A stretch of 63,868 nucleotides of DNA, counting the filler, from Blastocystis sp. subtype 4 (taxonomy: Eukaryota), in assembly GCF_000743755.1 (NCBI RefSeq). It is 12 parts of 12 records of this genome, joined end to end, with 100 filler letters (N's around TTAATTAATTAA, not from the genome) between each part and the next. Parts side by side here need not be neighbours in the genome. Positions count along the whole stretch, not along the records: positions 15,492 to 24,008 come from NW_014569066.1; 11 more parts are not named here. The stretch is one strand, 5' to 3'. The translations under genes were made by a program, and so were the position numbers. The notes below the pieces were generated by a model, which saw only the letters and a list, made by a program, of their open reading frames with translations, searched no databases and was not told the origin of the DNA. Shown in pieces: positions 5,956-44,022 of this stretch; within the stretch, counting starts at the first letter, position 1; each line of letters starts with the position of its first letter.

Positions 5956-5984
5956 CTATACATCTTACAATGAACATTTTCAAT

Positions 5985-6692
5985 CCAACTTATCAAAATC
6001 GATAATACAAAGGCGTCTTATCACGCTTTCTTCAAAACACATTTTTCATTCATTCTTTCATATTTCATTCATATTCACATTTCTATTCGAATCATACTAT
6101 CCAAACATCCTTATTCACACTTCTATCTTCTCATCTATTCTTATCTATCACCAACCTAATCATCTTAGGCTGGTTTTCATTCCCTTCTTTACTCATCCCT
6201 TTCAATGATCGATTATCACTTCATTCATTTCTTGATAGTAAACAATCAGATTCACACTACCTTGTAATAGACTCGATTGTTCTTAACTTTCCCGAGGGGA
6301 CATCTTCATCTTATCAACCTCTAATCTGTATTCTTATGGTTCTCTATCATCTAACAACTATGTTCTCTTCTCATGATTTTGGTACTCATCATCTACTCTC
6401 ATTCACACAATGTCTCTTTCAGAACGGTGTCTCATCCATATACTCGGTCACCATTAGGACGTAACTTATGAATGTGTAATGGTACCATTCTCAGGGAAGC
6501 TTCGTGTTGCCAGGGTGTATGGTTGATTTGATGAAGAAGTCACCCTACTATTCTCCAACAGGAATAGTGGTTGGATTCATGAGCTGTCAAGCAATCACTC
6601 GAGACTTGGGCCACTCGGGAACTAGTCCGAGGCCTCGCAGGTATGGACGTTAAGTGCCCTCTAGGGCATCTATGTAGCGTGTATAGTGTTTA
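5985..6692 (+). repeat. Repeat B copy 1
   Basis: Homologous to 37126-37861 and 42659-43270; ends GGACGTTAAGTGCCCTCTAGGGCATCTATGTAG...AGTGTTTA. Confidence 0.9.
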
Positions 6693-15491: not shown

Positions 15492-15615
15492 AGGAGTTCG
15501 TATGAGTGATTTGCGTTCGGTTCAGTTTGATGTGCGTGATCGTCATGGTGAAGTAGTATCAATCGCTTCAGACATCTACATCAACATCCGATTGAATGTG
15601 AACGGAAAGGTTTAA
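15492..15615 (+). CDS. C-terminus of Polinton/PLV-type minor capsid (penton)-like protein
   Basis: GVRMSDLRSVQFDVRDRHGEVVSIASDIYINIRLNVNGKV*; homologous to 29965-30085, 46330-46677 and 49590-49942. Confidence 0.6.
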
Positions 15616-15648
15616 TTTAATCTACGATTAAATAGCTGCTATGCAGCT
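15615..15648 (+). terminator. Double hairpin directly after the penton-like stop codon
   Basis: ATTTAATC-TAC-GATTAAAT then AGCTGC-TAT-GCAGCT; a terminator role is inferred only. Confidence 0.4.
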
Positions 15649-15689
15649 TAATGGGAAGGTTTAAGCTGTTGATTATTCACTTTGTGTGA

Positions 15690-16514
15690 GGAGTAGTTTT
15701 GGAGTAGGTTCAAAAATACAACCTACTCCACATTTCATTCAAAAAGGCTCATTAAATGGCTTATTTATAGGGATTAAATCATTTTGGAGTAGGAGGAGTA
15801 GGAAGAGTAGGTTGAAAATTCAATTTGACAAAATGTTTTGGTAGAATTCTTCTTAAGAAATAGAAAACCAACCTACTCCAACATCAAATAATCCTCATAA
15901 TCAAGCTAATTTATGGGCTATTCTAAAGGAATTTGGAGTAGGTTTGATATTTGAGACTACTCTTGAAACCTACTCCAAGTTTCTCCAACCAATATGTAAT
16001 CGATTATACTAATCCCTAATAACAAGGATATGTTGAATAGTTGCTCCGCAGTTGCTCTGCAACCATTGATCTTTGATCAATTCGTTTAATGTGTTAAACT
16101 CCAAATTCTCCACTTCACTTCATTTCTCAAAAGTCTTTAAAGATCGACACCCATGCCCATTTATCAACACCCTTAAAACATCCTGCTAAATCTATTTGTT
16201 ACCCCATAATAAGTACCGATTATATTCTTGCATATATAACTGAATACAATCATGGTACTATTGAGTCATTACTTAACAACTATCTCCCGTATTTCTATTC
16301 AGTTATATGAACACCAAAATTAGACCATATTTTGGTCACAGTTTTAGCGTTTGTTCGTCACCCTGTTTACGGCACCATCATTTGTGTCAGAAAGTTTGTT
16401 TTACTTTGTTCATACCATTTAACTGATTACTTAACCATTTTGCACACATTTATTGCGTCAGCTCAAGGAGGTGCGGCGCCGCGCCCTCCGCAGAGCATGC
16501 ACGGCCTCAGGCCT
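15690..16514 (+). mobile_element. Repeat A copy (GGAGTAGG iteron array + terminal GC hairpin)
   Basis: Many GGAGTAGG/CCTACTCC words; ends GCGTCAGCTCAAGGAGG...GGCCTCAGGCCT. Confidence 0.9.
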
Positions 16515-16657
16515 CAACTCATTTTAATGTAACATTCGTCAATTACTACTTGAATAAAAGTGTCTGGGTTAAGTAGCTGTATGATTCTTATTGTTAATGT
16601 GGCAATCAATTACTCTCACAAAACAGAAGAATAACTCAGGATACTACTTCAACACTC

Positions 16658-19600
16658 TTACTCTTGAGGATCATACTTGTTCATCAATACGTTCGCTTTC
16701 TTTATGAATAACTCGTCTCGTTCAACAAGATTTCCATATTCTAGTTCGCTGTTCTTACCACCAAATCCGCGTACTAAATTGTATTTACCTTTTCCTGTGT
16801 GTGTCATGTTTGCCATTTTGCGAGCTTCTTCTTTGGGATCTGCTTTCTTGAACAGTACTCTGCCTTTTGCCTTGCCACCTTCCCACATATCATTTGCGAA
16901 GTCTTTAACCTTTTCAACCGTTGTCTGTTTCTGTATCGTATCTTTGTGGGCTTCAATATCCATTTCCAATGCTTTTATACAGTTCTTCAATGCAATAGTA
17001 CATTTGTTCACTTCTTCCCATGGAGTCATGTTGTTTTCTGGATTCACTTTTTGATCTCTTATATCCTTTCCACCAAAATGGGATGCATATTCAAGTTGTT
17101 GAAGATCTCTGACCAGTTTTCTTGTATCATCCACGTATTCTCTCACAATGAAGTAGGCTTGAAGTGTTTTGGATACATTATCTCATGATTAGTCACTCAT
17201 GATTCCATTACCATATGAAGGAGTGTCACTCTTCCAGAAAGGTCCTCCTCCGTTCTTGGGTACTCTCAATGAAACCGAATCAAGAGCTGGAACATCTACT
17301 TTTCATATTGCCACCATATTACTACTTTTAATCCAAACAGTTCTTGGATTCTCAAAAGAACCAGACTCACTGACGGACTGAATCACTTTGAATTCTGGAA
17401 GACCTACATGTTTTAATAACCTAAATGCTACAATTCAGTAGAAGAGAACATGAATAATCCTGAGCACCATACAAGGCTTTCTCCCCCAAGTAAAGCGTAC
17501 GCAGACTGTCCAAACCTAGTTGACACTAATACTTCTTCTCCTACTGTCCAAAACCGTTTCAGTTGAATGGTAGAAGGATTCACCTCCAAGATCGATCGTC
17601 TTCAGCGATGGCAAATCTATGATCAACAGTGGATTAAATATGAACTCCTCAATATGAAGGAAGCATGATAAAAGTTGCATGATTTCTTGTGTCTGTCACC
17701 AATTGTCAGATGTTGAAGGTTATCAAGATCTTCCAGAATGAACTCTCCGTAATCACTGAAACTGAAACGACCAATTGAAATCGTATCCAACGACTTGCAT
17801 TCGGTGATGGAGAATGATTTTCCTTCATCGCCTCCTCCATTTGGAGATTCGGTAAATGAGTTATCTCCTATCTCTACAGTCTCTAATAAAGGAAGATTAG
17901 ACAATTCAAAAGATTTGACTCTCAAACAACAACCGTCTCTAATAATAACGTGTTTCAACTGGAGGTATATATTGTTCCACTTAAATGACATCAATTCAGT
18001 GCAGCTATTGTCTTCAACGTAAAGAATGGTCACCTTCTCAGTGACCTTCTTTTTCCCATCGTAAGTAACCTTTAATCCATTCTTATCAATAACATCATTA
18101 TGCTTCTTCATCGATTCCTCGATTATCTTCTCGATCTCTTTTTCCAAGGTGTCAGTTAACAATGTTTCTTTACCATCCACTAGATGAGTCGCACTTTTGC
18201 ACTTCTCTTCAAAACCCTTCATTGCTTCATATTTGATTTTGTTCAATTTGACTGCAAACTCCTCACTATCCATGCTATCATCTGAAATGATGTTATCTGC
18301 TTCCTTCTTGAAACTCTACACAACACTACTCAAATAACACAATACATNTCCTTCAATGTCAATGGTCTTCTGCAGGTGCTCTCTGTATCGAGTTTGCAGT
18401 TTATCACTGCCCTTCTTCTTCTCTTCAAACAACTTCCATGCAATATCATTGGCCTTCTTATGGATTGCTTCCAAGTCAGTATTGCCATACACCATATCTG
18501 GGCGAATTCTCTTATTCATTTCTCGTTTATACATCTACTACTTAATTGAATATCATTCACCAACCTCACAACATTCATCAACAAGCTGACTCAGCTTTGC
18601 CATATACAGATTGTCCATGATGCTATTCGTATCTGGGAAATGCTTTTGTTCCATAAACAAATGAGCTTGTTGAACTGCAAATCTACTCTTAATATCGTTT
18701 CATTCACTCACTCAACAAATGTTTTGACAGTGATTGTTTCACCTCCAATCTTTCTTGGTTCAATTCCTTTTCTCACTCCATCACCTTGAATCACTCGATC
18801 AATGTAGTAACTCAACATTTGCATAAACTGAGGTTTGATTTCAGATATGGATCCTTCATAATCCAAATTCATAACATCTTCTCCAGGAGAAGGAAAACAG
18901 AACATATCGAATTCATTAAAGCATTCCTCAATCTCTTTCACTTTGAATGCATCTTATTCAGTCTATTTATACCCAATTGAATTCCTTGCTCAATACTAGT
19001 TCTCTTACCGTAGTTTTCAAAATCACGAAGGAGAAAGTCCAGATGCTGAAATGGTTTACCATCCTTCTTAGATACTTCCTTACTAAACTTGGAAAGAACA
19101 GAGAATTTCTTCAATTGATCTGTATTCATATTGCCCTTCTGATTGAAGATTGCATATGAAGATATAAGAGAACTCAACCCGAAAATACTGCAATTGAACT
19201 CATTCTTTGTATCTAAATCCCATAATCCTTGAGTGTCCATCAACAGAATGCAGATCCTCTCTCCATTCTTTCGAGTGATAACAAAAGGCTTATTCCAAAA
19301 CAAGATTCCTCGAGTATTCCTTTCTGTTCCAGGGCTGATTGATTTGATGTTTGACTTCTTCGTTTCGACATTCTCCATTGTGTCAAAGTCTTTAATCTTA
19401 TTGCCTTCTGCTAACATCCATCGTGGAATACCATTGTCAGTTAATGTCATATCCACATGACCTTTCTCTATGGTTTACGAACCGTATTGATGTCTCACTT
19501 CTGAGTTGTTCTAAATAGAGATTCAAGAAGTACAGAAAGAAGGATTTCCCACTTCGAGAAGGACCCATAATACAAAGAACTCCCACAGGAAGGTCTTCAT

Positions 19601-19745
19601 CTACCTGTGCTTCAACTCCACATCATTCCACTACCTCTGAGAATAACCCATTCAAAGACTTGTCTTTCACTTTATACGACTCCCCCTTTTCTTCAATGAA
19701 CTAAAACTCATAGAAACAAGTCATCCTGACCTGTAAATCAGACAT
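16658..19745 (-). CDS. Atlastin/GBP-like GTPase - helical - LRR - coiled-coil fusion protein 1, multi-exon
   Basis: ATG 19745; GPSRSGKS (P-loop), TRGILFW, LLMDTQG, FLLRDF; LRR exons (LPLLETVEIGDNSF). Confidence 0.8.
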
Positions 19746-19844
19746 GAGGCAAATTAATTATGACCATTCACTGGTTCTTAATAATTTGTTAATACTTCCG
19801 CGGATATATCACTCATTCAGAATCATCCAATCATCAGTGTCAAC

Positions 19845-19870
19845 AGTAGTAGTAGATTGACACATGTTAC
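19845..19870 (+). mobile_element. Repeat C terminus (Polinton-like AGTAGTAG end) at an insertion junction
   Basis: AGTAGTAGTAGATTGACACATGTTAC matches AGTAGTAGTGTTTTGACGCATGTTAC at 43938. Confidence 0.65.
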
Positions 19871-19871
19871 A

Positions 19872-20640
19872 AGGCCTGAGGCCAAGTATGCACCTCCTTG
19901 AGCTGACGCAACAAATGTGTGCAAAATGGTTAAGTAAACAGTCAAATGGTATGAATAAAGTAAAACAAACTTTCTAATACTAATGATGGTGCAGTAAACA
20001 TCGTGACGAACAAACGCTAAAACTGTGACCAAAAATTTGGTCTAATTTTGCTGTTCATATAACTGGATAGAAACACGGGAGATGGTTGTTAAGTAATGTG
20101 TCAATAATACCGTGATTGTATTCAGTTATATACGCACGAATTTATTTGGAGTTTATTATGGGGTAACAAATTGATTTAGCAGGATTGTTTTAAGGATGTT
20201 GATGTTTAAAGACTTTTGAGAAATGAAGTAAATTGGAGAATTCGGATTATTCAACCAATGGATGATACCATTGTTATTAGGGATTAGTATAATCGATTAC
20301 ATATTGATTAGTTCATTATGAGATTAACAATAATGGAGTAGGTTTCAAGAGTAGTCTCAAATTTCAAACCTACTCCAAATTCCTTTAGAATAGCCCATAA
20401 ATGAGCTTGATTATGAGGATTATTTGTTGTTGGAGTAGGTGGAGTAGGTTGGTTATTCTATTTCTTAAGAATTCTATCAAAACTTTTTGTCTAATTGAAA
20501 TTTCAACCTACTCTTCCTACTCCTCCTACTCCAAAATGAATGAATCCTATAATCAAGCCATTTAATGAGCCTTTTTGAAGGTAATTTGGAGTAGTATTTT
20601 TGAACCTACTCCAAAACTACTCCAAAACTACTCCAACAAA
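19872..20640 (-). mobile_element. Repeat A copy, directly downstream of the primase-helicase gene
   Basis: Inverted homolog of 15690-16514; hairpin partly deleted. Confidence 0.9.
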
Positions 20641-20694
20641 TCATGATTATATAAAGCATAGCTTCCAAAGTAAAATAGAATCACATATTCATTA

Positions 20695-23600
20695 TCAAAC
20701 TTCACAATCACATACATGCAACAAGTTATAGACCACAAGATTATTACATTTTGTCGGACATTTTCTTATATACTGTGGATACTTCGATAGTTCTAACATG
20801 AATGATTTTGCACTTAGTTTATATCCATTATGATAGCTGCAACAGTAACTGTTAAACGCTTGTCCCAGACTTTTTGCAGGAATCATATATCCCTCAGTAA
20901 TGTATCTGATTGCTCTTCTTTGCTTATATTTTGACGTACAATACACATCAATCTCCGTGTCATCTTCAGATAATTGTTGAAGCCATTCTTCAACTGGATC
21001 AACAGATGCATCAATAATGTTCTGCATATATTCAGTGTCTTGGATTTCCAAGATATCTTCATCTGTGTATCTGACTTTGTTAAAGTAATTGTACAAACCA
21101 TGGCTGCTTCTTCCAAACATCGATTGTCTTAGCAAAGAAAGGCTGAGTGATGTATTGATCAGGCATGAAGTTTAAAGCACTAAATGCATTAATTCGAGCA
21201 TTACCATTAGCAACATCAAATGAAAATCCATTTGCATTGTTTGTTGTAGCAATGATTCGACTACGCATTGTGTATGTATAAGCTTGAATGTTCTTTCTGT
21301 TAGCAACCCTGTGTTTAGTACCATCAATGTAACTCTTCATCACATCAACGATATCTTTGCCAAATTCGGAAGCACGAGCTTCATTGATGTTCACAAGCAA
21401 TGTATTCTCAAATGGAACTCGATGAGCTCCAAGCAAATCATCCCTATTATTACATTCAACCACATATTCATCACCAATTATCTGACTGATCATTTTGATC
21501 AACAATCCTTTGCCTTGTCTGCATCTACTGTAGAATAGAATGCCAACAGGCAACAAATTAGCAGGATCTTGAATCATTTGAGCTACAAACTTCTTCACAT
21601 ATTCACAATATAATATATCACCAGAAATGTTGAGCATTGCCAAGATATAGATTCTCATGAATATAGGATGAAAGTTGATGTACATCTTCATCTGATCTGT
21701 TAACGCAGGAATCATGTCCATGAAATCATTGATCATAGGTACATATTCAGATAGATCAGGAACAGGATCAGTTGAACGAATATCTGGATTGTATCCTTTG
21801 AATGTGTTAAGCACTTTCTCACCAGTTGAAGGATCTCGTATCACTTCAACTGAACCACCACCAACTTTGTTGCATGGAATGAAATCTGCTCTGTTAGCAA
21901 CTCTTCTGATATTGAAATATGCATTGATAGCATCAATAGTTGGTTCTTTTGGTCCCTTGATGTCTTTGTCTTCGAAATATGATCTTGTCCCATAGATCTT
22001 ACCGATATTCTTCCATGTACCAACAATATCACTGTTTCGTTCAATATGTCCATTCACATAGCATGAATTGACAGGCGTTTGTAAGAACACAATTCGCTGT
22101 GATAGATAGCTCTTAATAATACTGATTGTCTTATTTCTATCTTTCCTATACTCATCTTCACTATCATAAGCACCAACACCTGGCTTCTTCATGTATCTCT
22201 TACAGATCTTCATTAATACCCAATCCTGAACAATCGGAAGATCTGCATCTCCACGCATGACCTCAGTATCATCATCAATTTCGTCATCACTGAAATCACA
22301 AATCGCATTCAAATCATATCTTCCATATTTCTCAGAACAGAAATCATCATAGAATGAAGGATTTGTATCTTTCACAATCTTCATCACAGTACCCATTGTA
22401 TAGATTTGATCTCGATCTGTCTTATATCCATTGTAGTATGTTTGTCTGAATGAATCAATATCATTGTTCTTAGGACGTCCAATGATTTGATTCCATTTCT
22501 CACAAACAATCTCATAACAGCCCATCCTTCATCATAATCATCTGTATCTTCAAAGTTTCTTGCAACTGCAGTGATTATAGGCAATTTGATTGTAGTATAG
22601 ATTCCTTCTGTAATAACACTGTAGTATAGATTCCTTCTGTAATAACACTATCAGGAATATGATCAAGCAGATCACGAACTTCTTTAACTGTGAACTTTTG
22701 ATGCTCTTCATTGTTTGATATTTCATCATGCTCTGTATTGTTTTTAACATCGTTAACACAGCTGTAAGCTGTGTTTAAAGATGGTTGTACTTGTTTGATA
22801 TTATCATTTGATGATGGAGGTTCAGGAAGTGTAAATCCTTCAGGAAGTTTAAAGGGTAAAATCTTGTTCTTATCAAAATCACTAAACACTGGTTGATCAG
22901 AATAATCAACATATTCATCTCTCAAAATGCAATCTGTGTATTTTGAATAATCAGCATCACCAAATTCTTTATCACCCAATTCAACGATATCAAATGATGA
23001 ACTAGTATAACTATCTTCTTCCATATCATAACATAGATACATATGACTTTCAGGCTTACAACTTCCATCTATCCAAAACACTCGTTTAGCGCCAAACATA
23101 CATTTATCAACAATTCTTTCAACATTGCCATAGAAGATCTTCTTAACTTCAATATCATTGATGATGTAGTTATATGTTGCTTCACGATGTTCATCATCTG
23201 TAAGTGCTTCAAGAATAATATGTGCTCCATGCTTATAGAGTTGCTTTGCAACATTTTGAGTGCTACTCAAATCTCCACATTGATATGGTGGTCTGATATA
23301 CAGATTGCTGTTGGTAGAGAACATTTCACACAATCGCTTATTGAATTGTTTGAATTGTTCTATTGGAACATCTTCAGATCCATTAGAATAATCCAGATCA
23401 ATACAAATCTTTCTTTTGCCTGTAAGAACAATACCAACAGCTACTGTATTTGTATATTCAATATCACAGTAATCTGCATGCCATTTGATAGCATACTGGA
23501 TAGATAGATTGTTGAAGAATTCATTCTTATCGTTTGGAACGTAAAATCCCATAGGGACTAGTTGTTTGTTGGGAGTACCATACCATACACACGAACATAG

Positions 23601-23758
23601 AATTGATGTTTATCTATTACAGTTTTTGGTTCACTCTTATAATAACATCCATTATTCCCATTTAAAAAGGAATGTAGATAATTAATTAGAGGATTTGCAA
23701 TTTGTTTTTCTTTGCTATTAGTAGGATTAATCGTTGTTCTATCAATTGTATCGCTCAT
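20695..23758 (-). pseudogene. Viral-type AEP primase - SF3 (D5-like) helicase - C-terminal winged-helix fusion, about 1000 aa, intronless, at least four frameshifts
   Basis: KICIDLDY, KHGAHII, VDKCMF..WIDGSCKP (AEP); VLNTFKGY, SRCRQGKG (Walker A), VNINEA (Walker B), IIATTNN (motif C); IPAKSLGQAFNSYC..SAKSF. Confidence 0.85.
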
Positions 23759-23859
23759 TTACTTATAGTGGAATAATCTATTAATTGATTATTTCACTTA
23801 GAATTTGATGATTTAGTTTTGATTCACAAAGTGACTGCAAATCTATGATTTGCTGGGTA

Positions 23860-24008
23860 GTTAGTGTAGTAGTTAGTATAGTAGGTTACAAAGAAGTAGG
23901 CTACTACACTTAATCCCTCATAAACAAGCTTGATTATGGGGGTATTCTTTAATTTATGAGGGTTTAACTGACTTGTTTATGAAGGTGTAGTAGGTGTAGT
24001 AGCCTGTT
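23860..24008. promoter_or_regulatory. Second iteron array (GTAGTAG type) upstream of the primase gene, cut by contig end
   Basis: GTAGTAGG/CTACTAC words around the scaffold CCTCATAAACAAGCTTGATTATGGG shared with repeat A. Confidence 0.6.
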
Positions 24009-24108: not shown

Positions 24109-25870
24109 CCATTCATATCCAGACGGGCTCGCATCCTCACAATAGCTTCTGATAGATCTCCATAGATCTGATAGCAAGTCTCACGCCGATACAACTCGAA
24201 ATTACGAGCAAGGTAATCATGGAATGAGAGGAATTGAAGATTCAACTTTGGAAGTGCTGTTACAGTGCTTGTAGGAACTAGAGATCCACTCCAAAGAGTT
24301 TGTTCATCAGGAAGGAGAGAGAGAGAATTGATAGAGTCAAGTGGAGTATGAGGAACACAATATTCACAGGCAAAGATCTCCAATAACAGTTCCTCATTCA
24401 ATTCTCCTGATCCTGATGCAAACAGATCATTACTGGATTCAATAGTGCGTTGATTCATTGGTGGAACCAATCGTAAATGAATAGCAAGTGAATCCAAATC
24501 TTTGAAAGAGAGACGACGAAGTTGATCCATGAGAGTAGTACGAGAAGCGATATGATGCACTGAAGTCAAACATAACTCTTCCAACACTTCTGGATAGTAT
24601 CTATCAGTCATGATTTGATTCAAATCTCACTTGTACACAACATTCTGGAAGATGAGCATCTTCTTGTAATAATGTTCACTCGCTTCTTCTTCTGATAAGG
24701 CTTCACCAGTCACTTCATCGATTGCATAACTCTCATAATACGATAAACTCTCTGTTAGATCCCATAACAGACTGCGCTCAACATACATAGGACTCAGATG
24801 GAGACGAGGAAGGACTTGACGATCTTTCAGATACAGCAACAGATAACGTCGGGTAGTAATCTGTGTTAGCAATTCAACGAATAATTCCACAATACTACAT
24901 ACGATATTCTCATGAGTCTTATCGTCAAGGAGATGGAGAAGCACATTCACAAGGAAAGGGAAGAAATTGGAATTACGATCTGTTGGAGTGGATGACTGAT
25001 AGTGAGTTGCAGCAGAAAGCGATTTGAACAAAGCATGACCAGTACGAAGAGTCTCGCTAGGATCCTCACGAATAGCATCATTGAATTCAGAGAGATAATT
25101 CTCAACACTCTCAGACTCTTTCTCGAACTTTGCTGAGTTCAAATGTTCCAACAGACCCAATAGACTTCGTTTCACTTCATACATTTCCCAGGTCACCTTC
25201 AGACGAGGATTCCGATTCAATTCGAGAATACGACGACGACTGTGAACATGACTCCAAAGTCGCAAATTACACAATGGAACCAATTGACGACGAATGCAAT
25301 CAATCTCAAATGACTACAAATCAACAAACACCAACAGAGTCACTCGAAAAGCATATTTGAAGAAAGCAATATAGACAGGAAATTGCTCGAGAGTGACCTC
25401 TTTGTTCAAAAGCATATCGATCACTTTGGAGAAGAAAACGCCAAACTTGGCTTCATCGTTTAGAACAAAACCCCAACCTAGTGGATTATACATCTGAACT
25501 CATCTATATACCAAAAACACCTTCATCAAGTTTGTCAACAATCAACTCAACAAGACGAAATACTGCATCATTATCAGCATTCTCTGAGAATTGACTCCAC
25601 AATTCAATTTCCATTTCACAGTTTGGAGTTGAGGAGAGTTGATTAGTGATTGTGAGAAATGGAAATGAAATGAATGAAATTATCTGATACAAGTGAATGG
25701 AGAAGAGTGATATGGATAACGAGAAAAGAGTTGGAAATGAAATGGGGAGTTCAACTCAATCAAAATGGAAGTATCGACATCTTTCCAAACCATAGCAATG
25801 TTCATTTCTTCAAATTCAATAATGTCTCCCTACAACAATGGTTTTCAAGCAGCATAATGATACCCTGTTG
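24109..25870 (-). CDS. AQR: RNA helicase Aquarius (IBP160) N-terminal part, 3' partial
   Basis: LPKLNLQFLSFHDYLARNFELYRRE, FVELLTQITTRRY, YAIDEVTGEAL; start approximate. Confidence 0.85.
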
Positions 25871-34147: not shown

Positions 34148-34315
34148 AAAATGTCTGCCTTTTCGAGCTTGTTTATGGGCCTTTTTGTCTGCATTTTCGT
34201 GGCGTTTTTGTCTGGTAGGGTTAAGCGTGTATAGCTACCCAGGGTTAGAGGCCCATGTTTGCGACGGTTTGTCTGGATAATAAAAATACGTAACATACGT
34301 CAATTATCTACTGCT
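34148..34315 (-). mobile_element. Repeat C (Polinton-like terminal repeat), cut by contig start
   Basis: Reverse complement of 43938-44022; outer end AGCAGTAGATAATTGACGTATGTTAC. Confidence 0.7.
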
Positions 34316-34989
34316 TCTTCATCTTGTAATTGACCAGTTATTCTTGTTTATGGTTCTTCGTCCTCGGACCTTATTACGGTTTTATTGAATATTGGTCATT
34401 GCTTCTTGAATCTTGGTTCCTTTGGTTCCTTTGGTTCCTTTGGTTTCTGGATCTCGTAACCAGTTTCTTGGTATTTGGTTTGACTCTTGGTCCTTCAAAC
34501 TTGATTCTTGGCTTTCAGCTGTTATTCATTTATCTTCCTTCTTTGGCTCCTGATTTTGACTCTCGAAGTTGTTATTGACCACTAGTTCTTGATAATGGTT
34601 CTTTGTCCCCAGACCTGAGTGTTGGTTGTAGTACCTGGACCTTGGTTCCTCGTGTCGGTCCTTGATTCTTCATTCTTATGTCTTGGTTCTGGATCTCCGA
34701 CTCCTAATCATTGCTTCATGTTGTATTAATCATAAATGGTTCCTTCTTGACCTTGAGCCTTACTCATATTGACTCATTAGTTTTCATGCTGGCTCATTAT
34801 GTGGTATTGCCAAATGGTTCACGTCTTCGTCCTTCACCCTCGGACCTTAGTATCTTGGAGTCTTGGTTCGGTATATTGGATTCGCTCATAGTACTTGGTT
34901 CTTGATCCTTTGTTAGTTGGTTATGGTTTTGGGATCTTGAATCTTGGTTCTATGGGTCTCGCTCTTCGGTTCTGGTTTCCACTCATGGC

Positions 34990-35255
34990 TCATTGTTCTT
35001 GGCCCTTGAGTTTTGGTTCGTTGAGTCTTGGTCTTTGACTCTGGGTTATTGAATATTGAGTATAGGGAAAGGTTTAAACTCACTGTTCTTGGCCCTTGAG
35101 TCTTGGTTCGTTGATTTTGGTTTTTGACTCTAGGTCCTAGTATTTTGAGTAGAGGGAAATGGTGTGGCATAAACTCATGGTTCTTGACCCTTGAGTCTTG
35201 GTTCATTGGTTCTTGGTTTTGACTCTGGGTTCTCGAATTTTGAGTATAGGTTAGT
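34990..35255. repeat. Three diverged ~90-bp tandem units within a TCTTGGTT-rich tract (34330-35600)
   Basis: GTTCTTGGCCCTTGAG...TTTGACTCTGGG...TTGAGTATAGG at about 34995, 35085 and 35180. Confidence 0.8.
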
Positions 35256-36862: not shown

Positions 36863-37125
36863 CTTCACATACTCTATGCATCATATTCAACCGCCTTTCA
36901 TACCTAACTCTACATTCCATTCATATTCTGACAATACTGCAGGTTTCATCTCTCAGACACTCAGCTAAGCTTCAATTCTTATACTTCAATTCAAACCGCT
37001 TTCATCACTCATGCGAAATATACTATCCAATACTACAGATCTTACTCACAACTTGATCTCCACTAATACTTCGAACTTCATCCTTTCTATAATACCATTC
37101 AATTATACATCTTACTACTAATCAA

Positions 37126-37861
37126 ACCAACTTACCAAAATCGATAACTCAAATTGTACATGTCTTCTCACTTTCTTCAAAACACAGCTTTCTTTCATTC
37201 TTTCATATTTCATTCATATTCACATTTCCATTCTAATCATACTATCGATACGTCCTCACTCACACTTCTCTCTTTTCTCATCTGTTCTTATCTGTACTCT
37301 TCTATATTACCAACCTAATCATCTTAGGCTGGTTTTCAATTCTTCATTCCGTTCTTTTAGTCATCCCTTTCAATGATGGATTACCACTTCATTCACTTGT
37401 TGATAGTAGACAATCAGATTCACAGTACCTTATTCATAGACTTGATTGTTTTTAACTTTCCCGAGGAGACATCTTCATCTTATCAAGCTCTAATGTGTAT
37501 TCTTATTCTTCTCTATCATGTAAGAACTATGTTCTCTTGTGATGATTCTGGTATTCATCATCTACTCTCATTGAGACAATGTCTCTTTGAGAAGGGTGTC
37601 TCTTCGAGATACTCGGTCACCATTAGGACATAAGTTCTGAAGGTGAAATGGTACCATTCTCAGGGAAGCTTCGTGTTGCCAGGATGTATGGTTGATTTCA
37701 TGAAGAAAACACCCTACTATTCTCCAAGAGGAATAGTGGTTGGGTTCATGAGCTGTCAAGCAATCACTCGAGACTTGGACCACTTGGGAACGAGTCCGAG
37801 GCCTTAATGATATGGACGTTAAGTGCCCTCTAGGGCATCTAAGTAGTGTTTAAAGTGTTTA
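37126..37861 (+). repeat. Repeat B copy 3
   Basis: Homologous to 5985-6692. Confidence 0.9.
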
Positions 37862-39044: not shown

Positions 39045-39263
39045 NNNNNNNNNNNNNNNNNNNNNNNNNNNNNNNNNNNNNNNNNNNNTTAATTAATTAA
39101 NNNNNNNNNNNNNNNNNNNNNNNNNNNNNNNNNNNNNNNNNNNNAGGCAAATTAATTATGACCATTCACTGGTTCTTAATAATTTGTTAATACTTCCGCG
39201 GATATATCACTCATTCAGAATCATCCAATCATCAGTGTCAACACCATTATTTTCTTTTGCCTG

Positions 39264-42200
39264 ATGTCTGTTATTCAAGTAGAATCGATGGAGATAATGA
39301 ATAGTAGTATATCGAGAGGTCAAAGCAAGGAAAACTGATGGTAAGTGAAGATTGTCTCCGTCGGTTGTTGAGCGATGTAGTATTGTCATGATGAGTTGAT
39401 TAGAAGGATATAGCGAAATTGGATGTGGCAGTACTGGGTATTATGGGTCCATCTCGAAGTGGCAAATCACTATTTCTCAACTTTGTGAGACTGTATCTGG
39501 ACAACCTGGAGAGTATGTATTCAAGAGGGAAAGAATGTATAGAACAAGGAAGGAGTTATTCAAAACTGAGAATACCAGATGTACCAGAATGGATGACTTC
39601 TGAAGGCGACCAAATCAGCGGATTTGAGGTTAACGGAGGAACAATAGCGGTAACAAAGGGTATTCTCTTTTGGAATAAGCCATTTATCATTCGTCGCCCT
39701 AATGGAAAGAAGATGTGTTTGTTACTAATGGATACTCAGGGATTGTGGGACGACAATACTGATAACTATTTCAACTGCTGTATCTTTGGACTAAGTTGCG
39801 TGATATCATCCTATGTTATCTTCAATCAAAAGAGGAATATCAATTCAGAAGAGCTGAAGCGATTGGCCGGTCTTTCGATGTTGAGCAAGGAAATGGTATG
39901 TGATGGAAGGAAGAAGACGTTTCAGAAACTCGATATTCTGTTACGTGACTTTGAGAATCTGAGTCTCCGAAATGATACTGTAGCTACTTGTGAGATTAAG
40001 AGCAAGAAGCGATTAGATCAATTGCGAACCAAAGTTGCTGAAAGAGAGTCATTTGGACAAGTTGAGTCGTGTTTCGACAAGGTGGATGTCGTATGTTCGT
40101 TTGATCCAGGAGAAGATGTCCGAGATGTCGACTATAAAGGATTGATATCTCAGATCAGACCCAAATTCTTGCAATTGTTGAGCCAGTATATTGAACGTAT
40201 TGTGAGAGATATTGAGCCATTGAAGGTTGATGGAAGGGATTTGAAGTGTGAAGAATTTGTGAAGTGGAAGAGAGAATGGAGAATAAGATATAGGTTTGCG
40301 ACTGAAGAAGCGGATTTCTTTGGAAAGTGGAGTCATTGTCCAGATATGGATGACTCTCTGGATTCTGTTTATAAGAGTGAGATGGAGAAGTTGGTAGATG
40401 AAGCGTATACCGTTAGTATGTTCTTGATGAATGAGGAGTAGAAATACACCAATGACTTGTTCTTGATGGAAGGAGGAATATGTGCAGATTCTCTCTTCTT
40501 GGCCAATGGTAAGGTGCGAGATGAATCGATGCAAGTGGGATTGATTGGATGTGATAATGGGAAGTGTATTGTGGATGTAATGAAAGATGTCGATGTCTCC
40601 AACTTCAATCCATCGGTTCAGGTGTCATTGAGTAGTAGAGTGTCTAGTGCCAAAGAAATCGGACTGAAACATTTCCAAGAGAAGGCAAAAGGGAGTATGA
40701 ATCTGAGAAGAGAGTATGAGCGATTGTTGAAGAGTAAGATGGATGAAAAGGCAACAAATCTTCGATCAGATTGGAATCAATTTGAACAATCATGGACAAG
40801 AGTTTGGAGAGTGGGAGTGTATAGGATAAATGATCCTTAGTGGTATAGAAGAACAATGGAAGAAACAATTCAGATTCCAAATCAAGATTATGCTACATTT
40901 GAAAACAAAAACAAGAAGGCGAAAGAGCAGGCGCTAACAACAATGAAGAATGAATGCAGAGGATTGGAGTACATTTGCATCTACTATTTAGCTAAGGATA
41001 AGAAGATATGGAGAGGGCATGTAAATATAATCAATACAATGACAAAGGGGCTTGACAGACAATATGATCGATATAAAGGACTGTATGAGTCGTATGTGAA
41101 ACTCAATGGATTATCGATGGTTCTACAAGGAGATGATGAATGGAACGAGCGGAACAGATACATTACGAGTCTGAGAGTGGCTTCTGGAAGTGGAAATAAA
41201 CTATCTCAATTTGAACTTGTCAACTATGATCGGCTGAAGGAGATAATCATTGAGGACAACTGCTTTGAGAGAGTCATCAAATTCAAATTGGATCATTTGA
41301 CAAGACTGGAGAAGTTGGTTGTTGGAAAGAAATCATTCACAAGAGGAGAGTATGTGAATAAGATATACTATACCGACACGAGTTTCATCATCACGAATTG
41401 TCCATCATTGACACTCATTGATATTGGTGAATGTAGTTTTGCAGAGTTTGGTGGAGAATGGAAGTTGAGTGGATTAGAGAAACTGAAGAAGTTGAGAATA
41501 ATAAGTGAAGACCAAGAGAGTTACAACTTCAACGGTTCTCCATTTGTGATAGAGGGTGGAGTCATGTGTGTAACTGATTAATGATAGGTCTACCTAATCT
41601 GGAAGTTATCGAATTGGGATATAATGCCTTTATTTGGGCCTCTGAAATACGTTTAGAAAGTAGGATGAAAGAGAAGTTGAATAGTAGACTTGAAGAATCT
41701 TGAAAGGATTGAGTTGAATACTTGGGCACTTCAAGGTACTACAAGAGAAGAGAGAGCATGTACTTTAGCGATGATAAGTATGCAATGATAAACGAATTGA
41801 GAGTAGATTTGCCAAACTTATATACGATACGAGCGAAAGGGACATGCAACTTGACGCAACCACGAGAAGTGACCTTACGAAGTAGGTTTCAATGAAGAAT
41901 AAGACGATAGACGTTCCATTAGTGAGAACTGTGGACTTGCATAATCCATTCCAAGAGTGCAAGAGCAAAGAGATTGGTGATAATATTGAAGAAAGATAAC
42001 GAATAGGCAATGTTGGCATTGGTTTACGGTCATACTTTGTAATGAAACAATTGAAAAGTGAAATGAATGAGCTGTTGAATCTGGATGATTATGGATACGA
42101 GAGTAGTTCTGCTAGGGAAAGTATTCAGAACTGCAAAGAAGAACAAAGAAACTATGATATCACTTGTCATTCAGGATATGATGTGATGCGCAAGTTGAAG

Positions 42201-42548
42201 GGATTGCTTGAAAAGTATAAGGATGCATTGAAGACAGATTTGGACAAACAATACTCAGAGAAGAAACGAATTGATGAGAAGAAAAGAAAGACAAAGGAGA
42301 AGATAGATGGATTTGATATAGCAGGGATAGGTAGTTCTGTGGGATGTTTTATCCCAGGTCTGAATCTTATTGCCGCACCAATAGCAGTAGCCTCAGTGGT
42401 TGCCTCCAACAAAGCGAAAGAAGAGTTGAATACACTAAGAAGAAACTATGATGTATGCAATAATAGAATAAGTAGAGACGAGAAGTACTTGAGAAGAATT
42501 GATCAGATACTACAGAACTATGACTTGAGAAGTGTTTATACTGTTTAG
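39264..42548 (+). CDS. Atlastin/GBP-like GTPase - helical - LRR - coiled-coil/hydrophobic-hairpin fusion protein 2, multi-exon
   Basis: ATG 39264 with two ~30-nt introns; GPSRSGKS, TKGILFW, LLMDTQG, ILLRDF; LRR; GIGSSVGCFIPGLNLIAAPIAVASVV. Confidence 0.8.
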
Positions 42549-42658
42549 TTGATTAACAAGAATGAATGAGTGGTGTTGAGTGATGGTAAAAATAGGTGGG
42601 TAAAAGTGTCATTGGAAGTGTTAGGGGTAAGAATGAGTGTGTTTAGGGTTTAGGGTGC

Positions 42659-43270
42659 TAAACACTTTAAACACTACATAGATGCCCTAGAGGGCAATTA
42701 ACGTCCATACCTGCGTAGGCCTCGAACTAGTTCCCCAGTGGTCCAAGTCTCGAGTGATTGCTTGACAGCTCATGAATCCAACCACTATTCCTCTTGGAGA
42801 ATAGTATAGTGATTTCATGATGAAATCAACCATACGCCCTGGTAACACGAAGCTTCCCTGAGAATGGTACCATTTCACCTTCAGAACTTACGTCCTAATG
42901 GTGACCGAGTATCTCGATGAGACACCCTTCTCAAGAGACATTGTCTCAATGAGAGTAGATGAATACCAAAATCAACACAAGAGAACATAGTTCTAACATG
43001 ATAGAAAAGAATAAGAATACACATTAGAGCTTGAGTAGATCAAGATGTCTCCTCGGGAAAGTTAAGAACAATCGAGTCTATCAACAAGGTACTGTGAATC
43101 TCATTGTCTTCTATCAACAAGTGAATGAAATGGTAATCCATCATTGAAATGGATGACTAAATAAACGGAATGAAAAAGTGAAAAAACCAACCTAAGATGA
43201 TTAGGTTGGTAATATAGCAGATTGTAGAGAAGAGTATAGATGAGGATAGATGAGGATAGATGAGAAGAGG
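42659..43270 (-). repeat. Repeat B copy 4, abutting (TTTAGGG)2
   Basis: Reverse complement of 37270-37861. Confidence 0.9.
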
Positions 43271-43937: not shown

Positions 43938-44022
43938 AGTAGTAGTGTTTTGACGCATGTTACGTATTTTTTTCATCCAGACAAACCGTCGCAAACATGG
44001 GCCTCCAACCCTGGGTAGCTAT
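43938..44022 (+). mobile_element. Repeat C (Polinton-like AGTAGTAGT terminus), cut by contig end
   Basis: AGTAGTAGTGTTTTGACGCATGTTACGTATT...CCAGACAAACCGTCGCAAACATGGGCC. Confidence 0.7.

Follow-up and report, generated by a model that had tools for sequence, protein, structure and literature searches.

The 99-bp identity shared by two contigs of this stretch of DNA (hereafter the window, 63,868 bases in 12 contigs, with spacers of N44-TTAATTAATTAA-N44) is probably the overlap at a real fork. At this fork, a gene for a GBP-like GTPase (gene 1) and the intergenic stretch beside it run into a second such gene (gene 2) in some molecules and into the terminus of a repeated PrimPol-helicase element in others, the latter arrangement likely having been joined by integration or transposition in one allele or copy. 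There is good support for an element end having joined the shared spacer in one of the two forms of the locus. The contigs and features immediately around the fork are the following:

15492-24008: contig 4
39145-44022: contig 8
19747..19845, no strand assigned: shared stretch, contig 4 copy; bulk of a 120-bp ATG-to-ATG spacer, continuous with both genes in the public contig L002 (see below)
39145..39243, no strand assigned: shared stretch, contig 8 copy; first bases of contig 8
16658..19745, minus strand: gene 1, GBP-like GTPase with an LRR-like middle part (PF02263, E 9.9e-19; ATG at 19745-19743)
39264..42548, plus strand: gene 2, paralog of gene 1 (PF02263, E 2.1e-24; ATG at 39264)

The earlier note on this DNA had reported that 99 bp of contig 4 recur at the start of another contig, and this is exact, with 99/99 bases the same between 19747-19845 and 39145-39243 and all of the note's coordinates correct. 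The pair (repeat family D20, 2 copies in the window) is the sole 100% repeat in the window, the remaining repeats between contigs 4 and 8 reaching at most 97%. In an exact-match survey of all 24 contig ends, the 99 bases at the start of contig 8 were followed by matches of only 27 and 22. Since contig 8 starts at 39145, the 99 bases can only be a minimum length for the identity, set by the contig boundary and not by biology. Past ...GTGTCAACA, contig 4 continues as GTAGTAGTAGATTGAC... (in a longer extract, GTAGTAGTAGATTGACACATGTTACA), and contig 8 continues as CCATTATTTTCTTTTGCCTG to an ATG 20 bases on, at 39264, which is the gene 2 start that the earlier note had placed there. On the other side, the CAT at 19743-19745 provides the minus-strand ATG of gene 1 one base to the left of the shared stretch, again as had been proposed. 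Other contigs of the window carry ordinary eukaryotic genes by Pfam, including CDC20, Aquarius, PRP1/Prp6, Hsp70 and an OCRL-type phosphatase.

A 28-base query from the gene 2 side, run against public metagenome contigs, matched 2 loci, L001 and L002, and revealed the uninterrupted form of the locus. L002, a SPAdes contig of 5471 bp and 2.1x coverage, comes from another metagenome and is labelled human gut. It equals contig 8 at 100% from 41294 back to 39145 (2150 bases) and leads on without a break from gene 2, by way of the shared stretch, into all of gene 1, down to 16508. Against contig 4, over 3.3 kb, it shows 4 substitutions, 63 additional bases at the N at 18348 and 19 additional bases after 18941. 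Since L002 spans gene 2, the stretch and gene 1, the two GBP-like paralogs sit head to head; their ATG-to-ATG spacer of 1 + 99 + 20 = 120 bp agrees with the approximately 120 bp that had been predicted from the window. The site itself reads GTGTCAACACCATT in L002, without duplicated bases. L001 (4382 bp) is 100% identical to contig 8 and starts 10 bases further in, inside the shared stretch. Among genome contigs, the end of the shared stretch had 0 matches. The absence of any footprint or duplicated bases at the site, together with the mirror-image starts of the two genes, suggests that the uninterrupted form is ancestral. The opposite polarity, with the gene 2 form as the derived one, was considered and rejected on the grounds that the terminal element module after gene 2 is only 85–88% like the one at 19872.

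Genes 1 and 2 are collinear paralogs, with 46% identity across the GTPase part and 28% across the LRR-like part, and both have a GBP N-terminal GTPase domain with a P-loop (CIMGPSRSGKS in gene 1 and GIMGPSRSGKS in gene 2). At both ATGs, a frame of five codons (MSDLQ in gene 1, MSVIQ in gene 2) is followed by GT, and the P-loop exon lies approximately 125–130 bases after the start, behind an AG, in both genes. It is this mirror symmetry of the two starts that points to the putative starts and first introns; the predicted first intron of gene 2 extends to 39403. The three in-frame stops examined in otherwise open frames, at 40439 and 40838 (gene 2) and at 24627 in the Aquarius gene, all fall inside candidate 30-nt GT...AG segments (3/3). 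The available text of a study of Blastocystis ST1 reports that over half of the introns are 30 bp (PMC5608401), and the candidate 30-nt introns seen here would match those, a correspondence that, together with the gut metagenome labels of the public contigs, suggests a Blastocystis-like host and is to be taken as a lead only.

The reading frames of gene 1 are broken by predicted short introns, by a 1-N gap (18348) and by a 19-bp deficit after 18941. According to public contigs, the single N at 18348 hides 63–67 bases, which is either a local fault of contig 4 or a strain difference. The 19 bases after 18941 are missing from contig 4, but L002 has them, as do contigs of two public runs, X1 and X2. 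This deficit splits the GTPase frame of gene 1 into 178 + 81 aa, versus an unbroken 261 aa in L002. Gene 2 is fragmented into many short contigs in X1 and X2, and at 39715-39987 both runs hold a 98.5% identical paralog of the conserved GTPase stretch with different upstream sequence. The loose end in X1 and X2 at 39715 was considered as another element end and ruled out; the branch is this 98.5% GTPase paralog, and its 30 letters are absent from the window.

Evidence for the interrupted form, and for the fork itself, comes from the assembled contigs of these public runs, not from raw reads. Runs containing the stretch are labelled as mouse and rat gut metagenomes, plus coded organisms. Contigs of runs X16 and X8 matched nothing in 39145-41200, and those of X6 matched nothing in the part with gene 1 and the junction, results that carry no weight in either direction. 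In X1, record 5 (2092 bases) runs unbroken over 18056-20032 and thereby crosses 19845/19846; gene 2 is present in the same run from 39289 on, with 39244-39288 uncovered. In X2, record 19 (3049 bases) covers 16882-19845 and stops exactly at 19845, record 20 (217 bases) starts at 19816 and enters the element, and record 10 (526 bases) runs unbroken over 39214-39739 into gene 2. Records 10 and 20 each overlap the end of the stretch by 30 bases. These are Logan contigs, which we take to have been built with k=31, and 30-base overlaps equal k-1 at a graph branch. From the ends of the X2 contigs it follows that the stretch is preceded by gene 1 alone, for 3 kb or more, and is followed by two different sequences. 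The X2 assembly graph thus branches precisely at 19845/19846, and both continuations belong to one run. The loose end after 39243 in both X1 and X2 has the same letters as the element terminus. Over the shared left part, of at least 3 kb, the window, X1, X2 and L002 differ at only 5 single-base sites in all.

What lies on the element side of the fork is a discrete terminus that is used repeatedly in the window. Its copies, and the modules behind them, are as follows:

19845..19871, plus strand: terminus at the fork, AGTAGTAGTAG + ATTGACACATGTTACA
19872..20712, plus strand: terminal module E, starting AGGCCTGAGGCC, approximately 0.85 kb, repeated in other contigs in both orientations at 85–91% identity
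15690..16550, minus strand: E_L, second terminus and module, pointing away from gene 1, 86–90% identity
43938..43964, plus strand: third intact terminus, leading into an interior F and interrupting the E module of contig 8
34289..34312, minus strand: fourth intact terminus, with the same F interior as at 43938

Searching the window for the motif ATTGACNNATGTTACA with at most 2 mismatches gave 5 matches, 4/5 of which have AGTAG 3–7 bases before them. The intact terminus, AGTAG..TTGACnnATGTTAC, therefore occurs 4 times, each time beside unrelated outside DNA, with tips beginning at 19845 (plus strand), 16550 (minus), 43938 (plus) and 34312 (minus). The outer limit of the motif and the fork at 19845/19846 are no more than 1 base apart, so that the comparison of forms and the comparison of copies, which are independent lines, place the end at the same base. 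The join is at 19844/19845 or 19845/19846, as A19845 is common to the uninterrupted form. The earlier note had one version of the locus running into an element terminus, and this holds: the end is discrete and repeatedly used, and both forms are present in X2.

The tips at 19845 and 16550 lead into the E module, which recurs in contigs 2, 7 and 8 with decayed tips. The E_L tip at 16550 lies 107 bp past the gene 1 stop and is found in L002 (which reaches 16508) and in X1 and X2 contigs, which makes it a neighbour common to both forms. The inverted 0.85-kb module and 26-bp tip at 15690-16550 belong to a copy other than the fork copy. A unit of 16528-19871, regarded as an element carrying gene 1, was rejected, since the variable boundary falls at the inner side of what would be its right repeat. 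The tip at 43938 interrupts an E module, judged against three other E copies. Interior F stands behind the same 26-bp terminus at 43938-44022 and at 34148-34312, both contigs ending 85–165 bases after it; two different elements appear to share this end sequence. No element copy was observed with both of its ends. In IMG/VR, the terminus motif matched 5 loci without other similarity, and for that reason these matches are ascribed to chance.

Other repeats accompany these modules. A repeat of 0.6–0.74 kb, R2, occurs at 5980-6692, 37122-37861 and 42656-43254 with 86–90% identity, and in the three contigs it has a decayed E tip on one side and, on the other, the 3' end of an LRR-type gene. Among the E-module ends in the window, 4/5 adjoin the 3' end of an LRR-type gene, and the fifth, at the fork, adjoins the shared stretch. 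Short and very abundant repeats are embedded in the terminal modules at 15492-15775 and 20320-20603, where summed contig depths are 270–400 and 97–156, respectively, versus 7–10 for gene 1. In contig 7, a tandem array with units of approximately 47–95 bp (34885-35250) lies between an E module and an F tip.

The element's only recognizable gene is the following:

20695..23609, minus strand: predicted PrimPol (AEP)-SF3 helicase gene in three frames (22575-23609, 21080-22528 and 20695-21171)

The gene ends approximately 0.85 kb from the element tip. Its middle frame matches PF19263, the SF3 helicase core of D5-type proteins, with an E of 7e-09 in Pfam. A relative that is 99% identical, P0001 (633 aa), reads through and matches phrog_1156, 'DNA primase', with an E of 1.2e-12. 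The upstream frame of 344 aa had no Pfam match even at E 10 and no PDB match by sequence. An exhaustive search found 6 relatives of this frame, some of approximately 1000 aa with PF19263 further on. One of these, P0010, is a fused protein of 1014 aa with 52% identity to the primase frame and the same helicase family, PF19263; another, P0013, has PriCT-2 directly after the part matching the primase frame, and P0007 spans both window frames. A structural model of the upstream frame, built from 8 sequences with a mean pLDDT of 60.7 and good for residues 30–250, matched the PrimPol C962R of African swine fever virus (ASFV) at ranks 1–10 and 14 (E 6.6e-05 to 2.6e-04, TM-scores of 0.30–0.43), with human PrimPol next. 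The Atlas lead was AEP_C962R with a score of 0.96, a recognition below its threshold. Taken together, the fused relatives, P0007, the fold matches, the Atlas lead and PF19263 point to a PrimPol-helicase gene. Public contigs of several-fold higher depth carry 11 more bases after 21094 and 4 more after 22513, where the window frames break, and the window copy may thus be either decayed or locally misassembled. The element proteins have only 9, 1 and 6 database relatives. In IMG/VR, P0001 alone gave no match, and alignment A2 gave one locus, with 27% identity in the helicase and uninformative neighbours.

On the preferred reading, a head-to-head gene pair with an uninterrupted spacer would be the starting form, and an element end would have entered the spacer upstream of both genes, 20 bp from the gene 2 ATG and 100 bp from that of gene 1, and so would have separated gene 2 from the upstream region that the pair shares. 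Of the marks of an insertion polymorphism, a left flank common to both forms for 3 kb or more and a break at the element end are present, but a second junction that rejoins the site was not found in the public contigs. A simple insertion would, at its other side, show the far end of the element, next to it a short duplication (GTCAAC or TCAACA), and after that CCATTATT...; as read from the sequence, an element beginning at A19845 would have GTCAAC as its 6-bp duplication, and one beginning at G19846 would have TCAACA. A search with the terminus motif found the far end to be absent from the window. Similarly, neither of the two public contigs with the gene 2 start (0/2) shows an element end; in each, the sequence before gene 2 is that of the shared stretch. 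Nor was a far end seen beside the gene 2 start in the contigs of X1 and X2. Were a simple insertion present in the X2 sample, gene 2 would be expected to have another neighbour on its upstream side, and the X2 contig would break there. In X2, the gene 2 start has no second upstream neighbour and the 39214-39739 contig is unbroken, at a depth of approximately 4–7 that could hide one. This unbroken contig into gene 2 counts moderately against a simple insertion.

The same observation would fit two paralogous loci that are not alleles, where a recent duplication or composite transposition copied E_L, gene 1 and the stretch to a second place abutting an element, and the original kept gene 2. Such an origin, which we regard as unlikely, would account for the presence of both forms together in X2 and in the window assembly, for the element junction plus gene 2 in X1 and for the lack of a second upstream neighbour at the gene 2 start in X2, and the bracketing of gene 1 by facing element ends (16550 and 19845) is the geometry of a composite unit. 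It would leave a single insertion in place, but 'filled' and 'empty' would not be states of one population site. Against it stands the left part, which is near-identical over at least 3 kb within each data set; with only the 5 single-base sites differing across data sets, any duplication must be very recent. Nor is the depth of the shared part visibly doubled in X2, being 7.59 on the way in and 7.5 and 6.5 on the way out, a weak measure in that such depths cannot be ranked and fit no model. The depth of gene 2 in X1, approximately half that of gene 1, likewise comes from contig depths that are unreliable and cannot be ranked.

The break at the exact element end, with no far-end junction seen at gene 2, could also be the product of a rearrangement in which a nearby element end attacked the site 20 bp upstream of gene 2 intramolecularly and produced an adjacent deletion or inversion, deleting or moving gene 2 and leaving no duplication. 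A candidate end does exist, as in the uninterrupted form another E end of the same orientation follows approximately 4.1 kb further right (from 43394). However, the E module from 19872 is only 85–88% identical to that after gene 2, so the fork module is not the same copy, and to our knowledge such end-mediated rearrangement is not documented for this kind of element; we find this course of events improbable, and less credible than a duplication. Finally, the earlier note had named the outcome in which the 99 bp would be a dispersed repeat or a misassembly with no molecules spanning the two genes. An artefact of that sort, in which a dispersed repeat or an assembler chimera left neither junction as a real fork, would explain why the identity begins exactly at a contig end, as assembler overlaps do, and contig 4 does have local faults in its 1-N gap hiding 63–67 bases and its 19-bp deficit. 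Yet the stretch occurs only twice in the window and has a single left neighbour in X2, L002 spans both genes, and both junctions recur in the independently built contigs X1, X2 and L002, with the proviso that source data of the window may also underlie X2 or L001, which then would not be independent. An artefact is accordingly very improbable. Integration or transposition into the spacer of one allele or copy remains the reading that we prefer.

As it stands, the fork is real, and as a difference in a mobile element between alleles, copies or strains it is ordinary and opens no new question. With the join 20 bp upstream of gene 2 and inside the 120-bp shared spacer, the interrupted form would likely change the expression of at least gene 2. 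It is conceivable, but on present evidence doubtful, that the fork reflects a virophage- or polinton-like family that is mobile at present in a Blastocystis-like gut protist, encodes a C962R-type PrimPol-helicase and is hemizygous in a promoter shared by two GBP-like GTPase genes. If true, integrating virus-like elements would be active in this lineage and would switch immune-type GTPase genes on or off between strains. The fork itself is of value as a clean and testable case of recent mobility by a poorly known PrimPol-helicase element in a gut-associated eukaryote. Among the titles and abstracts listed for Blastocystis together with polintons or with endogenous viral elements, none describes such elements in this genus, and the available part of 10.1101/2024.03.23.586382 holds nothing bearing on the present element.

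The way in which the fork presents itself resembles an ordinary branch overlap of an assembler, in that contig 8 begins with an exact copy of the interior of contig 4 that ends at the divergence. It is unlike one in that the branch here is real, being reproduced by k=31 contigs and resolved by the independent L002. As for the replication gene, its likeness to ASFV C962R and the poxvirus D5 primase-helicase would lie in the order of an AEP PrimPol, PriCT-2 (in the relative P0013) and an SF3 helicase (PF19263); the differences are an identity of approximately 10% with TM-scores of 0.30–0.43, and a window copy that is split into three frames.

A 5'-AG start is typical of the Maverick/Polinton family. 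The present element shares with that family a discrete 5'-AG terminus, a long terminal module, multiple copies and intergenic insertion, whereas in the part available here neither of the hallmark genes, pPolB and the retrovirus-like integrase, was found, and its replication gene is a PrimPol-helicase. Indeed, a Pfam scan of all long frames in 19846-24008, which is 4.1 kb of the element, found only PF19263 and no pPolB, integrase or capsid, and no rve integrase was found in the 49 long frames scanned with Pfam (of 67 frames of at least 110 aa plus two more). Membership in Maverick/Polinton is therefore not supported, as judged on 4.1 kb of the element.

Closest among described systems are the endogenous virophages and polinton-like viruses of protists. 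According to the available text of a study of such elements in Cafeteria (PMC8547959), these EMALEs have terminal inverted repeats, with a primase/helicase gene marking one end, and occupy strain-specific integration sites without sequence preference; their target-site duplications are mostly 3–5 bp, and those of mavirus and Mavericks are 5–6 bp. The present element departs from the EMALEs in that its 4.1 kb shows no gene for a capsid, packaging ATPase, protease or integrase, in that no target-site duplication is seen here and its far end was not found, and in that its proteins are almost without relatives, the sole IMG/VR relative being the one with 27% identity in the helicase. To the extent that the available description of EMALEs allows, the likenesses are a primase/helicase gene beside one end of the present element, a terminal module of a few hundred bases that is inverted in other copies, several near-identical copies, and integration sites that differ between genomes and are not sequence-specific, as with the four unrelated flanks here.
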